In this document: positions 649-27,837 of the stretch, piece by piece
How positions within the stretch are numbered: position 1 is the first letter of the stretch
How the letters are laid out: every line of letters starts with the position of its first letter
Origin: Candidatus Rokuibacteriota bacterium
GTDB lineage: Bacteria > JAUVQV01 > DATDCY01
Direction of reading: 5' to 3'
Length of the DNA stretch: 48,573 bases
Assembly (NCBI GenBank): GCA_031406795.1
Contig: JANOHV010000007.1
Coordinates: 1 to 48,573, forward strand
Made by a program: the position numbers and the translations under genes
The notes under the pieces: generated by a model
The model's input: the letters and a program-made list of their open reading frames with translations, nothing else
Database searches by the model: none
Told to the model about the DNA's origin: nothing

Positions 649-1065
649 GACGAAGGGCTCTTGCGGAAAGGCAGAGGCGGAACACAGTACCTAGCGATTG
701 GCCGCTTATTCCCGGTCCCTGTGTCAGCGCTAAGGTTTCCCAATGGCTATCCACCGTTTTTTTGTTGTACCACGTCAGCGCGGTCTCTGTACCAGCGCGT
801 CCGCCATCGTATCACGCTGGTGATTTTCGAGGGGCCAGAGAAGCGTAGCGGCCGAAACCATAGCGGAGGCCCGCCATGGGCGAGTCCAGCGCGACCTGTG
901 GCAACAGGATTTGTCGCCATCTCAAACAAAAAGTTCACACCGGTCTCTCGAGCCAGATGCGGTTCAGCTCGGCTGTGTGGTATCGTGCTCAGGTGCAGAG
1001 CGGGCGCTGAACGATGAGCAGGACTGGATTTCAGGATGGAGAGCCGGTCGGACTGACAGAAGAGC

Positions 1066-1243
1066 CAGTGCTTGTTCTGGAGTCGGGCAGTGGGTCGAGG
1101 AGGAAGCCGACGTGCTCGGGGACTGCCGCCGCGCCTTCGGCAAGAACCCGCCGCGGTCCGCGAGCCTCGCCGTGATGAGCGACTCCGACAACACGGGTGA
1201 GAAGTGGGTCTCCTTCATCGGCAGGCTAGAGATCGCGCGCTGA
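1066..1243 (+). pseudogene. DUF3047-family C-terminal fragment
   Basis: SGVGQWVEEEADVLGDCRRAFGKNPPRSASLAVMSDSDNTGE resembles the DUF3047 C-terminal signature; no recognisable N-terminal part; 5' boundary approximate. Confidence 0.65.
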
Positions 1244-1246
1244 CCC

Positions 1247-3457
1247 GTGAGTGAGAGCCTGCGCCACTACCTGCACATGGCCCGCACGCTGCCGCCGCGC
1301 ACGGCAGTGCGTCGCGCGGGACAGATCGTCCACCGGGAGGTCGCTGCGCACGCGCGCTACCTGAAGGACCGCGTGCTGCCCACGCTCGCTGCACCTCGCG
1401 CCCCCGGAACGCCCTTGCTGCGCCACTTCCCCGCTCCTCCGCCGGAGCTTCTGAAGTCCCGGGCGGACGAAATCTGCGCCCGCAGCGCGCTCTGCATTGC
1501 CCACCGTTTCGACCTGCTCGGCTCCGGCTGGGTCGAAGTGCGCCACGGCATGAGCTGCCGCGGGCTGGACGGGCATCGCCGCGAGACCCCCGCCGTCGAC
1601 CCCGTGCGCGGCATCAATCGCGCGAATCGCGGCGCGGCGCGGCGCATCCGTCGGCTGATCCCCCGCGAATACCGGCCGATCGACTGGCACCTCGACTTCA
1701 AGTCCGGCTTCCGCTGGCCGGAGAGCCTCTGGTATCGCGACATCTCCTACGGTCACCTCGCCGGGGTTGACGTGAAGGTCCCCTGGGAACTCTCCCGCAT
1801 GCAACACCTTCCCGTTCTGGCCTGGGCTTTCGCGCTGGCGCGAGACAGGTCTCCCGGCTTTATGCCACCGCACTCCTACGCGCTGGAGTTTCGCTCGCAG
1901 GTGCTCGATTTCATCGCCGCCAATCCGCCGCGCTTCGGCGTCGCCTGGGCCTGCACGATGGACACGGCGATTCGCGCCGCCAACCTGCTCGTGGCGCGGG
2001 ATCTGCTGCTGGCCGCCGGGGTCGTTTTCGATCCACTCTTCGAGGGGTTGTTTGCCGAGTGCGTCGCCGAGCACGCGCGGCACATCGTCGCCAACCTGGA
2101 GTGGAGCGTCGAGTTGCGCGGGAACCATTACCTCGCGGACGTCTGCGGCCTGTTCTTCATCGCCGCCTACCTGCCGCGTTCGCCGCTCGCCGATGCCTGG
2201 CTGGCGTTCGCCGTGCGCGAACTGGTGACCGAGGTCGAACTGCAGTTCCATCCCGATGGCAGTTCTTTCGAGGCGTCCACTGGCTACCACCGCCTGGCGG
2301 GGGAGATGGTGCTCTGGACGACCGCTCTGGTGCTCGGCCTGCCCGAGCGGAAGCTGGCCGCCCTCGCCGAGTACGACCACCGGCTGCAGCCGCACCCCCC
2401 GGGACTCGCGCCCGCGCCCGTTCCGCTTCACCCGCTGGAGGGATCGGGGCGAAGCTCGCCCTTTCCGCCGTGGTACTTCGAACGGTTGGAGCGACTTGCC
2501 GATTTCACGCTCCATGTGGCCGGCCCCGATGGGCGCGTTCCCCCGGTCGGCGATTTCGACAGCGGTCGCTTCCTCAAACTCTGGCCCGCTTTCCGTCCGG
2601 AGCAGGTCGGGCAGGCCCGACGGCGTTGGTCGAATCTCGAGGGCTTCGACGATCTGCCGGAGCATGCCCGGTACTGGTGGGAAGACCACCTGGACCACCG
2701 GCACCTTCCGGCTGCGGCTGCCGGCCTCTTTGGACGGAGCGATTTCCTGGGCGCGGGCGACGAGGGGAACCTGGAGAATTTTCTGATCAGGCATCTGGCG
2801 AACGTGACGTTGCCCGCCGTGGCGGCCGGTGCCGGGGCGAATCCCGCGGTTCCCTCCGCGTGGGGGTGCGCCTCTCCCGCCGACGCCGTTTCCCTGGAGA
2901 TCCCTCTCCCCGGCGGCGATCTGCGCAGCGGGCTCGTCCTGCGCGCCTGGCCGGGTTTCGGGTTGTACCTTTTTCGCTCGAAGCGTCTGTACCTGCTGGT
3001 GCGCTGCGGTCCCGTCGGTCAACGCGGGAACGGGGGGCACGCTCACCACGACCAACTCGGGTTGGTGGTCGCGGCCGACGGGCAGATGATCGTTGCCGAC
3101 CCCGGCAGCTATCTGTACACGCCGCTGCCGGAGCGGCGCAACGAGTATCGTTCGGTGCATGCGCACTTCGCGCCGCACACAGTTGACGGCCGCGAGCCCG
3201 GGCGCTACGGACCGGGACTCTTCTGCCTGCCTGACGAGACGCGCGCCGAATGCCTCTCTTTCTGCCCGGAAGGCTTTCTCGGGGAGCACCACGGTTACGG
3301 GTCTCCCGTCCGGCGGCGGGTGGAGATCCTGGCCGACCGGCTGCGCGTGACCGACTGGGGGAGGGGACTGGCGTTGCTCGCTCCGGCACTGCCCCCCCAC
3401 GGCTTCAGCAGCGCGGTTCCCTTCTCCTCGGGCTACGGCTGGAGGGAGCGGCGATGA
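1247..3457 (+). CDS. Heparinase II/III family protein
   Basis: DVKVPWELSRMQHL, NHYLAD, FEASTGYHRL, GHAHHDQL, DPGSYLYT motifs; 736 aa. Confidence 0.9.
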   Translation: MSESLRHYLHMARTLPPRTAVRRAGQIVHREVAAHARYLKDRVLPTLAAPRAPGTPLLRHFPAPPPELLKSRADEICARSALCIAHRFDLLGSGWVEVRHGMSCRGLDGHRRETPAVDPVRGINRANRGAARRIRRLIPREYRPIDWHLDFKSGFRWPESLWYRDISYGHLAGVDVKVPWELSRMQHLPVLAWAFALARDRSPGFMPPHSYALEFRSQVLDFIAANPPRFGVAWACTMDTAIRAANLLVARDLLLAAGVVFDPLFEGLFAECVAEHARHIVANLEWSVELRGNHYLADVCGLFFIAAYLPRSPLADAWLAFAVRELVTEVELQFHPDGSSFEASTGYHRLAGEMVLWTTALVLGLPERKLAALAEYDHRLQPHPPGLAPAPVPLHPLEGSGRSSPFPPWYFERLERLADFTLHVAGPDGRVPPVGDFDSGRFLKLWPAFRPEQVGQARRRWSNLEGFDDLPEHARYWWEDHLDHRHLPAAAAGLFGRSDFLGAGDEGNLENFLIRHLANVTLPAVAAGAGANPAVPSAWGCASPADAVSLEIPLPGGDLRSGLVLRAWPGFGLYLFRSKRLYLLVRCGPVGQRGNGGHAHHDQLGLVVAADGQMIVADPGSYLYTPLPERRNEYRSVHAHFAPHTVDGREPGRYGPGLFCLPDETRAECLSFCPEGFLGEHHGYGSPVRRRVEILADRLRVTDWGRGLALLAPALPPHGFSSAVPFSSGYGWRERR

Positions 3458-23921: not shown

Positions 23922-24872
23922 ATGCAGAGCGAACAGTCGCACAAGATCGAGCGCATCCGTCAAAGCCTGAGTCTCGTCAAGCCGATCGTCACGCTCTCGG
24001 TCGGCGTCGTGCTCCCGGTGCTGCTCTCGACGGCGGTCGGTATCGTGGCCATCGTCGCCGGGGAAAGTTCGCTGACGTTGATCCTGGGGATCCTGATGGT
24101 TTCCTTCACCGCTGCGGCGATCGGCGGGGCGGTGATCCTCTACGTGCTGCTGGGGCGGCGCGCCCGCCTCGCGCGGCTGCAGTCCGACCTGCTGGCCAAC
24201 GTCACGCACGATCTGCGCACGCCGCTGGCCGCGATCCGGGTCTACGCCCAGACGCTGCAGACCGGTCTGCTGCGCAGCGACCCGGCGCGCGCCGAGGACT
24301 GCCTGCGGACGATCGTCCGGGAGACCGAGTGGCTGGACGCCATGATCGACCGGGTGATCAGCTGGCGGGTGGCGTCGAAAGACCGGGGACTCGTCGATCT
24401 GCGATGCGGCCCGATCCGCCCGGTGGTGGACGAGACGGCGGCGCGGTTCCTGCGGATGGTCCCCACCGACGAGGTGCAGTTGAGCTACATTTTCGAGAGC
24501 GCTCGCGATGTCCGCCACGATCCCCGCGCGCTGGAGCAGGCGCTCCTCAACCTGCTGGTCAATGCGGCCAAGTACTCCGCGGCGCCGAAGCGGATCGGCC
24601 TGCAGGTCCGCGATGAGGGAGACTGGGTGGTCGTCGCCGTGGAGGACAACGGGATCGGCATCCCCGCCGCGGAGGTCCGCCGGATCTTCGAGCCGTTCTA
24701 CCGGGTCAGCGGCGCCGGCTCCCGCGCTTCAGGGGCCGGCCTGGGACTGGCGATCGTGCACCACGCGGTGAAGGCCCACGGCGGGAAGATCATCGTCGAC
24801 ACGAAAGAAGGCGTCGGCAGCCGTTTCTCAATCTTCCTGCCGGCCTGCGCGGCGCAGGAGGGCAGCGGGTGA
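23922..24872 (+). CDS. Sensor histidine kinase (two close TM helices, intramembrane-sensing type)
   Basis: THDLRTPL, NLLVNAAKYS, DNGIGI, GAGLGLAI. Confidence 0.93.
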   Translation: MQSEQSHKIERIRQSLSLVKPIVTLSVGVVLPVLLSTAVGIVAIVAGESSLTLILGILMVSFTAAAIGGAVILYVLLGRRARLARLQSDLLANVTHDLRTPLAAIRVYAQTLQTGLLRSDPARAEDCLRTIVRETEWLDAMIDRVISWRVASKDRGLVDLRCGPIRPVVDETAARFLRMVPTDEVQLSYIFESARDVRHDPRALEQALLNLLVNAAKYSAAPKRIGLQVRDEGDWVVVAVEDNGIGIPAAEVRRIFEPFYRVSGAGSRASGAGLGLAIVHHAVKAHGGKIIVDTKEGVGSRFSIFLPACAAQEGSG

Positions 24873-25594
24873 AGCGCGGGGAGCCAGGGTCCGCGGCCGC
24901 GCCGAAGGCCCGCGGGGAGACGATCCTGGTCGTGGAGGACGACCGCTCCCTCCGCGAAGGGCTCGTGATGAACTTCGAGCTGCGCGGATACCGGGTGCTG
25001 GCCGCCGCGGAGGGGGAGACCGGCGTGCGGCTCGCCTTCGACGAGCGGCCGGACCTGATCGTGCTGGATCTGATGCTCCCCGGGTTCGACGGCTTCGAAA
25101 TCCTGTCCCAGCTGCGCGAACGGGAGATCGACGTGCCGGTGCTGATTCTTTCGGCCCGGGGCGAAGTGTCGGACAAAGTCGACGGTTTCCGGCTCGGGGC
25201 GGACGACTATGTCACGAAGCCCTTTCAACTTCCGGAACTGATCGCCCGCGTCGAAGGGATGCTGCGCCGGCGCCGGCGTCAGCGCGCGGCCCGAGACTCG
25301 ATCACTTTCGGGGAGATCGCCCTCGACCCCGCGGGCCGGACCGTGCGGCGGGCGGGGCGGGAGGTCTCGCTGCTCGCCAAGGAGTTCGACCTGCTCTACC
25401 TGCTGGCGAGCAATCCGGGACACCCTTTCAGCCGCGAGACGATCCTCGACCGCGTTTGGGGGTGGGGTTTCGACGGCACCACCCGCACGGTCGACAACTA
25501 CATCCACGCGCTGCGCCAGAAACTCGAGGCCGACCCGGCGCGGCCGCGCCACATCACGACCGTCCGCCAGATCGGCTACCGCCTCGATCCATAA
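24869..25594 (+). CDS. OmpR-family response regulator
   Basis: VVEDD, LDLMLP, GADDYVTKPF, wHTH ending TVRQIGYR. Confidence 0.93.
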   Translation: MKRGEPGSAAAPKARGETILVVEDDRSLREGLVMNFELRGYRVLAAAEGETGVRLAFDERPDLIVLDLMLPGFDGFEILSQLREREIDVPVLILSARGEVSDKVDGFRLGADDYVTKPFQLPELIARVEGMLRRRRRQRAARDSITFGEIALDPAGRTVRRAGREVSLLAKEFDLLYLLASNPGHPFSRETILDRVWGWGFDGTTRTVDNYIHALRQKLEADPARPRHITTVRQIGYRLDP

Positions 25595-25843: not shown

Positions 25844-26134
25844 TCAGCAACAGCCGCCGCTGCCGCGTCGTCCCGGGAGCACCTCGCCGAGCCACTCGCT
25901 GATCAACCCGGCGGCGCAACCGACGCCGACATCGACTTTGATCGCTTCGACCGGGCAATTCGTCCGGCAGGCGCCGCACTCCATGCAGCGGTTGGCGTCC
26001 ACGATCTGCGCCTTGTCGTCGCTCAAAGTGAAGACCTGGTGCGGGCAGACCTCCGCGCACATGCCGCAACCGATGCACGCCTCCCGGTCCATCTGGAGTG
26101 TCGCGACATCCGGCAGGTAGGAAAAGCCCTTCAT
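25844..26134 (-). CDS. hgcB: Mercury methylation ferredoxin HgcB
   Basis: CIGCGMCAEVCP, CMECGACRTNCP, GVGCA, C-terminal CC; directly downstream of hgcA. Confidence 0.95.
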   Translation of the reverse strand: MKGFSYLPDVATLQMDREACIGCGMCAEVCPHQVFTLSDDKAQIVDANRCMECGACRTNCPVEAIKVDVGVGCAAGLISEWLGEVLPGRRGSGGCC

Positions 26135-26148
26135 TGCCCCTCCTCAGC

Positions 26149-27270
26149 TCAACGCAGCGCGGCGGCAATCCAGCAGCCGAAGCCGGCAACCAGTCCGCAG
26201 GCCATCACCGGCATCGAGAGGCGCATCTCCCGCTTCACCCCGGAGAGCGACGTGAAGGGGGTACTGCCCGTGAAGTTCAGGGCGAGGAAGGAGCTGACGG
26301 CGCTCACCAGGAGCAGGGTCGCCGCCGCCTCGAGCCCCCGCCACCCGGTGACCGCCAGGAAGGCCAGGGACCAGAGCAGCCCGACGACCGCCCCCTTGAC
26401 GGCGAAGCTGCGCGTCGGCAGCCAGGGGAGGGCCAGCGGGGTGACGATCGTGCCGGTCGCCAACGCCCCGCCATACGCCAGGACCGCCGGGATCGCGGCG
26501 GCGGGGGAAAACTGGCCGTCGCGCCAGGCCGCGGCGAGCGCGAGCGGCGGCACAATCCAGGCCGAGCCCTTGAGGGCGATGACCAGTTCGATCGGGATCA
26601 GCACCAGGCGCTCCCGCAGCGTGAAGGTCAGCTCCCGCATCCGCGGCGTCGTCTGTTGGCCGCCGTCGAGGTAGCGGGGGATATCGGCCGCCTGGATCGC
26701 GGCAAAGTGCACCGAAAACCCCGTGCGCGCGCGGATCTCGAACGCCGAAACCCCGGGCGCCCCGAGCAGCGGCAGAATCAGGCGCCGGTGCCGCACGACC
26801 CTCGCCAGGCCGGAAGTCTCGATCCGGGTGATGAGTTCCTCGCTCCCGAAGGTGCCCTTGCCGGCGGCGCACCAGACGTTGATCCCGTGCGTCTCCAGCA
26901 CGAGGAGCCAAACGTTGCGCCCGACGAGCACCGCCCTGACGAGGTCGAAGCTCATCTTGTAGTTCGCCGTGACCAGCACCGGGTCGTCGGGGGTGGGAGC
27001 GCCGAAGGCATAAAGTCCCGGGGGAACCAGGTAGGACATGCGGCCGATTCCCCAACGCGCCTTCCAGGCCCCGAGGCGGTCGGCGCGGGCGAGCGCCGGC
27101 GAGATCACCGGCACCCGGCCCGCGGGCGTCTCCAGCCAGTGCTGGAATCCCGCCACCCGCTCGTCGACCTTCCCGCTGACCGCGGGAGTCTTCGGTCCTC
27201 AGCACGGTTCCTTGTCGACGGCGGGCCCGCACGCGGCGGCCGGCGCCATCGGCAGGAACTGTTGTGTCAT
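26149..27270 (-). CDS. hgcA: Mercury methylation corrinoid protein HgcA, with in-frame UGA (probable Sec24)
   Basis: TANYKMSFD, GINVWCAAGKGTFG cap helix, C-terminal TM helices, NFTGSTPFTSLSGV; ATG 27270 is in frame through TGA at 27201-27199. Confidence 0.93.
27166..27201 (-). promoter_or_regulatory. Bacterial SECIS-like hairpin
   Basis: UGA, then GAC-UCCCGC-[GGUCA]-GCGGGA-ag-GUC; the G-initiated loop begins 17 nt after the UGA. Confidence 0.7.
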
Positions 27271-27283
27271 CGCAACGCCGTCC

Positions 27284-27751
27284 CTATTTTGCCTGGTGCA
27301 GCTGCATCCCGCACATGCAGGCGCCGGGCTTGTCCGAGAGGGTGTTGCAGCCGCAGGAACCGCCGCAGTTGCAGAAGTAAAGGCCGCTGCCCTCGAGGTT
27401 GAGCCGCTTGATCGGCTTGCCGCAGCCGCACTTGGCGTGGTCCTTCGGGTCGATCTTGCAGGTGCAGGTCGGGCCGCAGGTGCAAGCCAGCGCGGTGTTG
27501 CCCTCCGTGAAGACCACGTGGCCGCCCGCCATCTCCTTACCGCAGGTGCACTTGCCCGGCTTCAGGGATACGGTGTTGCACTTGCACTCGGGGCCGCAGG
27601 CGCACCAGTAGACAACCGACGACCCGTGCGACCCGCCCTCCATGGAACCGTGCCCCTTGTGCTTCCCCTGATGCCCCCCGCCGTGGTGGGCGCAGGCGCC
27701 GAGGACGAAGGCGGCGGCGATCAGGACGAATGCTGCTGCGAATCTCTTCAT
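27284..27751 (-). CDS. His/Cys-rich metallothionein-like lipoprotein
   Basis: Signal peptide with LGAC lipobox, His/Gly linker, nine CxC motifs in three repeats; AAGGAGG SD; stop 13 nt before the hgcA ATG. Confidence 0.85.
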   Translation of the reverse strand: MKRFAAAFVLIAAAFVLGACAHHGGGHQGKHKGHGSMEGGSHGSSVVYWCACGPECKCNTVSLKPGKCTCGKEMAGGHVVFTEGNTALACTCGPTCTCKIDPKDHAKCGCGKPIKRLNLEGSGLYFCNCGGSCGCNTLSDKPGACMCGMQLHQAK

Positions 27752-27808: not shown

Positions 27809-27837
27809 AATGTACGGCGCGCGGCGGGGTGCGTCAA
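27809..27837 (-). promoter_or_regulatory. Sigma70 promoter of the lipoprotein-hgcA-hgcB operon
   Basis: TTGACG-17 nt-TACATT on the minus strand. Confidence 0.65.

Follow-up and report, generated by a model that had tools for sequence, protein, structure and literature searches.

Evidence for a selenocysteine-containing N-terminal extension of the mercury-methylation protein HgcA in a Candidatus Rokuibacteriota genome

Our study analysed a stretch of 48,573 nucleotides (the window) from contig JANOHV010000007.1 of a Candidatus Rokuibacteriota bacterium (GenBank assembly GCA_031406795.1), and focused upon a gene on its minus strand that, judged by its sequence, is hgcA, which encodes the corrinoid protein of mercury methylation. 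A UGA codon at positions 27201 to 27199, lying in frame ahead of the start assigned by open reading frame (ORF) calling, is in our assessment decoded as selenocysteine (Sec, U), with a probability of roughly 0.9. With the UGA read in this way, the full-length hgcA coding sequence occupies positions 26149 to 27270 of the minus strand and comprises 373 codons, of which the 24th specifies Sec, followed by a TGA stop codon at 26151 to 26149. A sequence-only reading of the same DNA had proposed that HgcA is a selenoprotein of 373 amino acids (aa), with a Cys-Sec motif near its N-terminus and a selenocysteine insertion sequence (SECIS) element directly after the UGA, and this proposal was supported by comparison with other sequences.

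Translation of the minus-strand frame from the ATG at 27270 to 27268 gave MTQQFLPMAPAAACGPAVDKEPC, followed by the UGA. After the UGA came GPKTPAVSGKVDER and then V-A-G-F, the Val being encoded by the GTG at 27156, and the frame passed without interruption into the called ORF of 335 aa. Traced back to the ATG at 27270, this frame holds one in-frame UGA, which lies upstream of the called start. When the UGA is read as Sec the product is 373 aa long and P-C-U-G-P forms residues 22 to 26, with the codons of Cys23 (TGC, 27204 to 27202) and Sec24 (TGA, 27201 to 27199) together occupying 27199 to 27204 of the minus strand. The N-terminal extension, from the ATG at 27270 to the codon preceding the GTG at 27156 (27157 to 27270, minus strand), amounts to 38 codons that ORF calling had skipped. 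The sequence-only reading had stated that these codons were absent from the ORF track and that the ATG at 27270 leads through the UGA, in frame, into the called ORF; both statements were confirmed, and every element was recovered at its position. A second in-frame ATG at 27249 (Met8) is present also in both of the same-genus genomes G001 and G002, and the exact start, either the ATG at 27270 or that at 27249, is not settled.

The identity of the gene was indicated by family models and by sequence motifs. The extended protein matched the NCBIfam model NF040863 (HgcA_corrinoid) with 427.7 bits, compared to a cut-off of 275, over residues 53 to 371. The motif NVWCAAGK was found at residues 131 to 138, and all eight residues from N131 to K138 were invariant in 52 aligned HgcA sequences; this corresponds to a cap-helix motif N(V/I)WCA(A/G)GK that was reportedly described by Parks and colleagues in 2013 as bearing the Cys that ligates cobalt. 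The corrinoid-binding domain PF03599 was matched with 41.5 bits, and NF003195 with 59.8 bits, which is under its cut-off.

Homologues were seen to carry either Cys or a UGA at the position of Sec24, a comparison that the sequence-only reading had put forward as informative. When the extended protein was searched against a database, the close relatives recovered measured 296–346 aa and had all been called without the extension, and the more distant relatives, of 373–402 aa, had been called with one. In an alignment of 23 HgcA proteins, all 17 with long N-termini had PCCGP or SCCGP, mostly as DKPPCCGP, falling exactly upon DKEPCUGP of the window protein, and the extension aligned with the N-termini of Cys-form homologues of 384–397 aa. 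A locus census was then based upon 80 hgcA loci of other species, these being the best 80 of 599 confirmed matches, with TGA read as U. Cys-TGA was found 106–109 codons ahead of the cap-helix NVWCA motif in 27 of the 80 loci, the distance in the window being 107, and Ser-TGA was found at the same place in one. A CC pair occupied the equivalent stretch in 35 loci (2 of these near a stop), single Cys residues only, mostly as CxC, were present in 10, and 5 had none; other in-frame TGAs beside stops, in 2 loci, were taken to be unrelated. With the window included, the 28 Cys-Sec sequences comprised 17 with PCUGP and 11 others of the ACUGP, SCUGP, PCUGK, CUP and CUA types. Among the best 80 of 599 matches, the nearest named HgcA loci belonged to Geobacteraceae and were approximately 62% identical. 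The single Ser-TGA locus, from a Syntrophobacteraceae metagenome-assembled genome (MAG) and lying about 107 codons before the cap helix, reads Ser-UGA-Gly-Pro and has a CCC run further upstream.

The sequence upstream of the UGA was conserved, and the conservation was of the coding type, as indicated by synonymous codons and by third-position entropy; the sequence-only reading had named a lack of such conservation as a refutation of its proposal. The TGA was retained in G002 and G001. The four codons before it read, in the order window, G002 and G001, AAG/AAA/AAA, GAA/GAG/GAA, CCG/CCC/CCC and TGC/TGT/TGC, and all of the differences among them are synonymous for K-E-P-C. Further upstream the residues diverge among the three genus sequences, although all three retain the ATG at 27249 and one near 27270. 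In the three codons that precede the TGA, entropy across 17 PCUGP-type sequences was 0–0.32 at positions 1 and 2 and 0.87–1.22 at position 3, and this periodicity is the pattern of a translated region. The 40 relatives available for the analysis comprised three of the same genus, one of the same order, one of the same class and 35 of the same domain only, and this paucity of close relatives indicates that the lineage is sparsely sampled. As a separate observation, the hgcA matches in G001 (loci L110 and L118) were split over frames, covering residues 8–97, 83–209, 206–317 and 311–373, which reflects either assembly frameshifts or a decaying gene; both the UGA and the hairpin after it are preserved in the N-terminal piece.

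A putative SECIS hairpin, UCCCGC/GGUCA/GCGGGA, occupies positions 27171 to 27187 of the minus strand, as supported by minimum free energy (MFE) folding and by comparison, and starts 11 nt past the UGA. The spacer, GGACCGAAGAC, covers 27198 to 27188 (11 nt), and the arms UCCCGC (27187 to 27182) and GCGGGA (27176 to 27171) enclose the loop GGUCA (27181 to 27177). The sequence-only reading had placed the loop 17 nt past the UGA, and this was borne out by the 11-nt spacer plus the 6-nt arm. The stem has 6 bp, to which the MFE fold adds outer pairs between 27197–27194 and 27169–27166. The hairpin was the MFE structure in the window sequence and in both same-genus sequences when folded in 39-nt and 76-nt contexts that contain it; a 54-nt fold of the window sequence, starting from the UGA, yielded another MFE structure from which the hairpin was absent.

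Comparison across the 17 PCUGP-type sequences revealed a helix of seven pairs, at columns 15–21 and 25–31 from the UGA, in which 95.8% of cells were paired, compared to 43.7–76.5% in controls with a slid 3' arm. Changes on both sides were seen in two of the seven pairs (15–31 as CG, UA and UG, and 16–30 as UA, CG, UG and AU), and the covariation score was matched by none of 500 shuffles. Within the genus, the outer U-A pair is replaced by C-G in G001, which is a compensatory change. In the 11 Cys-Sec loci with non-PCUGP motifs the peptide after Sec differs, and in 8 of them a hairpin of differing sequence, starting 16–21 nt from the U of the UGA, was read from single-sequence MFE folds. The SECIS of Escherichia coli fdhF, as it is generally known, resembles the window hairpin in lying just 3' of the UGA within the coding region, in its spacer of approximately 11 nt and in having G and U in the apical loop, whereas the stem in the window, at 6 bp plus outer pairs, is shorter and has no Rfam family match. 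An Rfam scan of positions 26,900 to 27,400, with E values up to 10, found no SECIS family and returned as its lone match a chance hit to RsmW (13.3 bits); this says little, given how short and variable the SECIS elements of bacteria are. The same-genus genome G003 holds a further kind of HgcA-like gene, with 51% identity to the window protein (locus L107, minus strand; TGA at position 2511 of the locus). The frame upstream of this gene starts with M, followed by 15 residues, the UGA and then Cys, so that the pair is Sec-Cys, the reverse of Cys-Sec. At 12 nt past this UGA lies a hairpin CCCGGC/GGUCA/GCCGGG, whose GGUCA loop is identical to that of the window hairpin.

The assembly, which is 99.91% complete and consists of 278 contigs, was found to contain selA, selB, selC and selD, the genes that the sequence-only reading had named as those to be expected, with selB represented by its C-terminal part only. 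The gene for tRNA-Sec (selC) scored 69.2 bits and was called by ARAGORN as SeC with anticodon tca. The selA match (541 bits) runs to the end of contig C93, and the selB match covers the C-terminal 423 model positions, with the beta-barrel and winged-helix domains, beginning at base 4 of contig C88. A contig break is the simplest explanation for the absence of the selB GTPase part, and a selA-selB operon was probably split by the assembly. The selD gene (351 bits, contig C234) itself has one in-frame TGA, in a ...CGUAAK... site, and an 8-bp hairpin follows 12 nt downstream of that UGA, which provides an example from the same genome of the layout seen in hgcA. Matches to tRNA-Sec above the cut-off were also found in G001, G002, G003 and G004, and the genome G039, whose HgcA has PCCGP, yielded no tRNA-Sec match above the cut-off.

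The placement of the Cys-Sec pair within the protein was examined using an AlphaFold model built on the 52-sequence alignment, which had a mean predicted local distance difference test (pLDDT) score of 80.3 and a predicted template modelling (pTM) score of 0.75. In this model, residues 1 to 30 had mean block pLDDT values of 32–51 and no secondary structure, whereas residues 31 to 60 had values of 81–95 and formed strands at 42–48 and 51–56, so that the Cys-Sec pair lies approximately 18 residues ahead of the first strand. Five C-terminal helices (218–248, 256–283, 289–308, 312–334 and 345–372) form a predicted membrane domain. The model fits a view of the first 30 or so residues as a flexible arm on the folded domain.

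A number of points weigh against the decoding of the UGA as Sec. Taken alone, the pattern of an extension through a UGA is not beyond chance. Stop-to-stop ORFs of 200 codons or more number 92 in the six frames of the GC-rich window, TGA is the upstream stop in 68 of these, and 17 of the 68 can be extended through the TGA to an ATG that lies 10 or more codons further up, so that such extensions are common by chance. A Cys codon precedes the TGA in 2 of the 17, namely hgcA and one further case (TGA at 3407, minus strand), which was rejected as a junk frame rich in Arg, Ala and Ser. The energy of the hairpin was likewise unexceptional, with z = -0.74 for the 76-nt context, where 46 of 200 shuffles did equally well, and z = -1.54 for the 39-nt context (12 of 200), and the comparison with shuffles was rejected as stand-alone evidence on account of its weakness. 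It is the comparative evidence from other sequences that raises the pattern above chance. Within that evidence, the 17 sequences used for entropy and hairpin covariation had been picked for Cys-TGA, so that the invariance of the TGA among them is by construction, which is not so for the periodicity around it. The hairpin also overlaps conserved codons, and its conservation may be partly at the level of the protein. The NF040863 model begins at residue 53 and lends no support to the extension; the Pfam and NCBIfam models in general were set aside as a test of the extension, as they stop short of it and neither support nor refute it. As regards the machinery, the selB fragment scored 130.5 bits, under the cut-off of 242, and no match to the GTPase part at the N-terminus of selB was obtained in the assembly. 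A literature search, with subscription journals outside its scope, found no experimental proof of selenium in any HgcA, and the passages available from a 2024 PNAS paper say only that homologues 'may be selenoproteins'. Finally, according to the passages available from a 2024 paper, HgcAB of P. mercurii produced in E. coli was active in Hg methylation in lysates, S-adenosylmethionine serving as the methyl donor; if that construct was without the extension, the arm would assist catalysis but would not be strictly required.

Were the UGA a true stop, HgcA would start at the GTG at 27156 or nearby and the 23 codons upstream of the UGA would be a leader ORF or non-coding, which we consider highly improbable. 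This explanation agrees with ORF calling, which gives exactly that start, with the database proteins of close relatives (296–346 aa), which were called in the same way, with an NCBIfam model that begins downstream of the extension and with the frequency of chance extensions through TGA in the window. However, the GTG that was called as the start (27154 to 27156, minus strand) encodes Val39, which is at least 90% conserved in the 52 aligned HgcA sequences and sits inside a conserved stretch, E-x-V-P/A-G-F, and it is therefore an internal residue rather than a conserved start. The starts picked by gene callers differ among relatives (MPAVSG, MGGLLDE, MPGF, VAGF and MAGF) and no internal start is conserved. 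A true stop would also leave unaccounted for the conservation as protein, across genera, of the residues from the UGA to Val39 (GPKTPAVSGKVDER), the synonymous evolution of the codons before the UGA and the many homologues with Cys in its place.

In bacteria at large, the decoding of UGA as Sec is in competition with termination, and it is conceivable that hgcA yields two products, a Sec form in the presence of selenium and, in its absence, an armless form resulting from termination at the UGA and internal initiation at the GTG at 27156 or elsewhere. The form of HgcA would then depend on selenium, with the UGA as the switch; we regard two products and the switch, taken together, as very unlikely. 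Such an arrangement would be in keeping with the general competition between decoding and termination, with a GTG 15 codons downstream of the UGA, with the folded domain starting after the arm in the AlphaFold model and with the activity in lysates of HgcAB from E. coli, for which the available passages do not state whether the construct had the arm. It is at odds with the lack of a conserved internal start and of a clear Shine-Dalgarno sequence ahead of the GTG at 27156, and with the confident modelling of residues 31 to 38, as a product beginning at Val39 would be without part of the fold. Were the gene instead a pseudogene of recent origin, with a Cys codon (TGC or TGT) mutated to TGA, a single base change from TGC would suffice; Cys forms with PCCGP do exist in relatives, and hgcA of the same-genus G001 is split across several frames. 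The phylogenetic distribution of the TGA, which is common to two other species of the genus and to 27 of the 80 loci of other lineages, contradicts this explanation, as do the conserved hairpin after the TGA, the rest of the gene, which is intact and scores fully as HgcA, and the Sec machinery in the genome; the probability of a pseudogene is close to negligible.

The gene next to hgcA, the ferredoxin gene hgcB (25844 to 26134, minus strand; 96 aa), matched NF040864 (HgcB_ferredoxin) with 125.7 bits, compared to a cut-off of 99, and starts 14 nt past the hgcA stop. Its product ends in ...GGCC, a C-terminal Cys-Cys, and is the Cys form at a position where some HgcB have Sec. Under the preferred explanation, in which the UGA is decoded as Sec, translation of hgcA would begin at the ATG at 27270, or possibly at the conserved ATG at 27249, and SelB with Sec-tRNA(Sec) would read the UGA as Sec, directed by the hairpin 11 nt downstream, to give the 373-aa protein. 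In this protein, a flexible arm with vicinal Cys23-Sec24 would precede the corrinoid-binding domain, with Cys134 in its cap helix, and five predicted transmembrane helices. Vicinal thiol/selenol pairs have a high affinity for Hg, and the Cys-Sec pair may be a binding site for Hg(II). The pair could capture Hg(II) from cellular thiols or receive it from the C-terminal Cys-Cys of HgcB, whose involvement is probable, and could then present it to the methyl-corrinoid under Cys134, either holding it or handing it over.

The hgcA gene of the window is a further member of a form of HgcA that has already been published, and it changes nothing conceptually. According to the passages available from Haft and Gwadz (bioRxiv 10.1101/2022.07.06.499078; J Bacteriol 2023), the majority of HgcA proteins contain Sec, in a PCUGP motif within an N-terminal extension that annotation had missed; the statement in the sequence-only reading that Cys-Sec motifs had been reported at the N-terminus of HgcA was correct. 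In that work, all of the 20 HgcA genes examined allowed an upstream extension through a single UGA, to 363–400 aa, with PCUGP 'perfectly conserved', Sec machinery was present in all species of those 20 genes, and the NCBI annotation pipeline is said now to carry reference data for these proteins (10.1101/2022.07.06.499078). A 2026 review, in the part available, lists HgcA (NF040863, motif CU) among prokaryotic selenoproteins. The window protein shares its family (NF040863), its missed extension and PCUGP with the published examples, which include GSU1440 of Geobacter sulfurreducens and DND132_1056 of P. mercurii ND132. Around and after Sec it is nearly identical to GSU1440 (...EPCUGPKTPAVSGKVDERVAGF... 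compared to ...PPCUGPKTPAVSGTINENVPGF...), its 373 aa fall within the published range of 363–400, and its genome likewise has Sec machinery. It differs from the forms in those passages in having Glu rather than Pro at -2 (EPCUGP) and in coming from a sparsely sampled lineage.

Other systems share features with HgcA of the window. Cys-form HgcA proteins of 384–397 aa, such as those from Geobacteraceae MAGs, have the same domain order and a vicinal pair at the same aligned site (DKPPCCGP), but have Cys for Sec and often a further upstream CC and a longer N-terminus. SaoL, SaoB and SaoC of the SAO locus and a few MerT proteins, as described in the available passages of Haft and Gwadz, likewise combine a vicinal Cys-Sec with mercury or organometallic chemistry; by that description they are set apart by unrelated folds and by a motif that lies elsewhere in the protein. 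The corrinoid iron-sulfur protein of the acetyl-CoA pathway (CdhD-type) has a homologous corrinoid-binding domain (PF03599), to which HgcA adds the Cys cap helix, the five-helix membrane domain and the Cys-Sec arm, and the window protein scores far better as HgcA (427.7 bits).

HgcA makes methylmercury, a neurotoxic form of mercury that accumulates in food webs. Most HgcA entries in databases are truncated, including the close relatives of 296–346 aa, and the real N-terminus with its Cys-Sec arm matters for heterologous expression of, and structural work on, HgcAB; the arm also bears upon the environmental link between selenium and mercury. These implications for annotation, for expression and structure, and for selenium and mercury were already raised in the available passages of Haft and Gwadz. 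The synonymous changes before the UGA, the covarying hairpin and the non-PCUGP CU motifs may go beyond those passages, as may the Sec-Cys HgcA-like gene in a sister species and the lipoprotein gene that abuts hgcA in two species of the genus.

This lipoprotein gene (27284 to 27751, minus strand) encodes a Cys/His-rich predicted lipoprotein of 155 aa and has its stop 13 nt before the hgcA ATG. The product has a signal peptide ending in ...VLGAC, a His-rich stretch and repeated CxCGPxCxC and PGxCxCGK motifs, and no Pfam or NCBIfam match was found for it. AGGAGG lies 7 nt ahead of its ATG at 27751, with a sigma-70-like site at 27837 to 27809, and the gene is possibly co-transcribed with hgcA. A homologue with 77% identity lies directly upstream of hgcA in the same-genus G001 (locus L110, 634–1167), and no homologue was found upstream of hgcA in G002. 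The genome itself has a paralogue with 33% identity (locus L005, approximately 956–1480, minus strand; contig C68), whose gene context was uninformative. A look-up of the lipoprotein in a protein atlas gave unnamed clusters only (scores 0.91–0.93, with recognition below the usual level) and was left as a lead. It is possible that the lipoprotein binds metal as a partner of the hgcAB unit, although its membership of the system is uncertain. One might picture a unit of three genes in the genus, for the lipoprotein, Sec-HgcA and HgcB in that order, in which the lipoprotein captures Hg(II) outside the cytoplasm and passes it through a thiol/selenol relay to the Cys-Sec arm of HgcA, and in which selenium supply, because the arm needs the UGA to be read as Sec, sets the amount of full-length HgcA and hence the rate of methylmercury formation; we consider this improbable.

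On the other side of hgcAB, ORFs for a putative histidine kinase (316 aa) and a putative response regulator (241 aa), judged from their translations, lie on the plus strand at 23922 to 25594 and converge on hgcAB from downstream.

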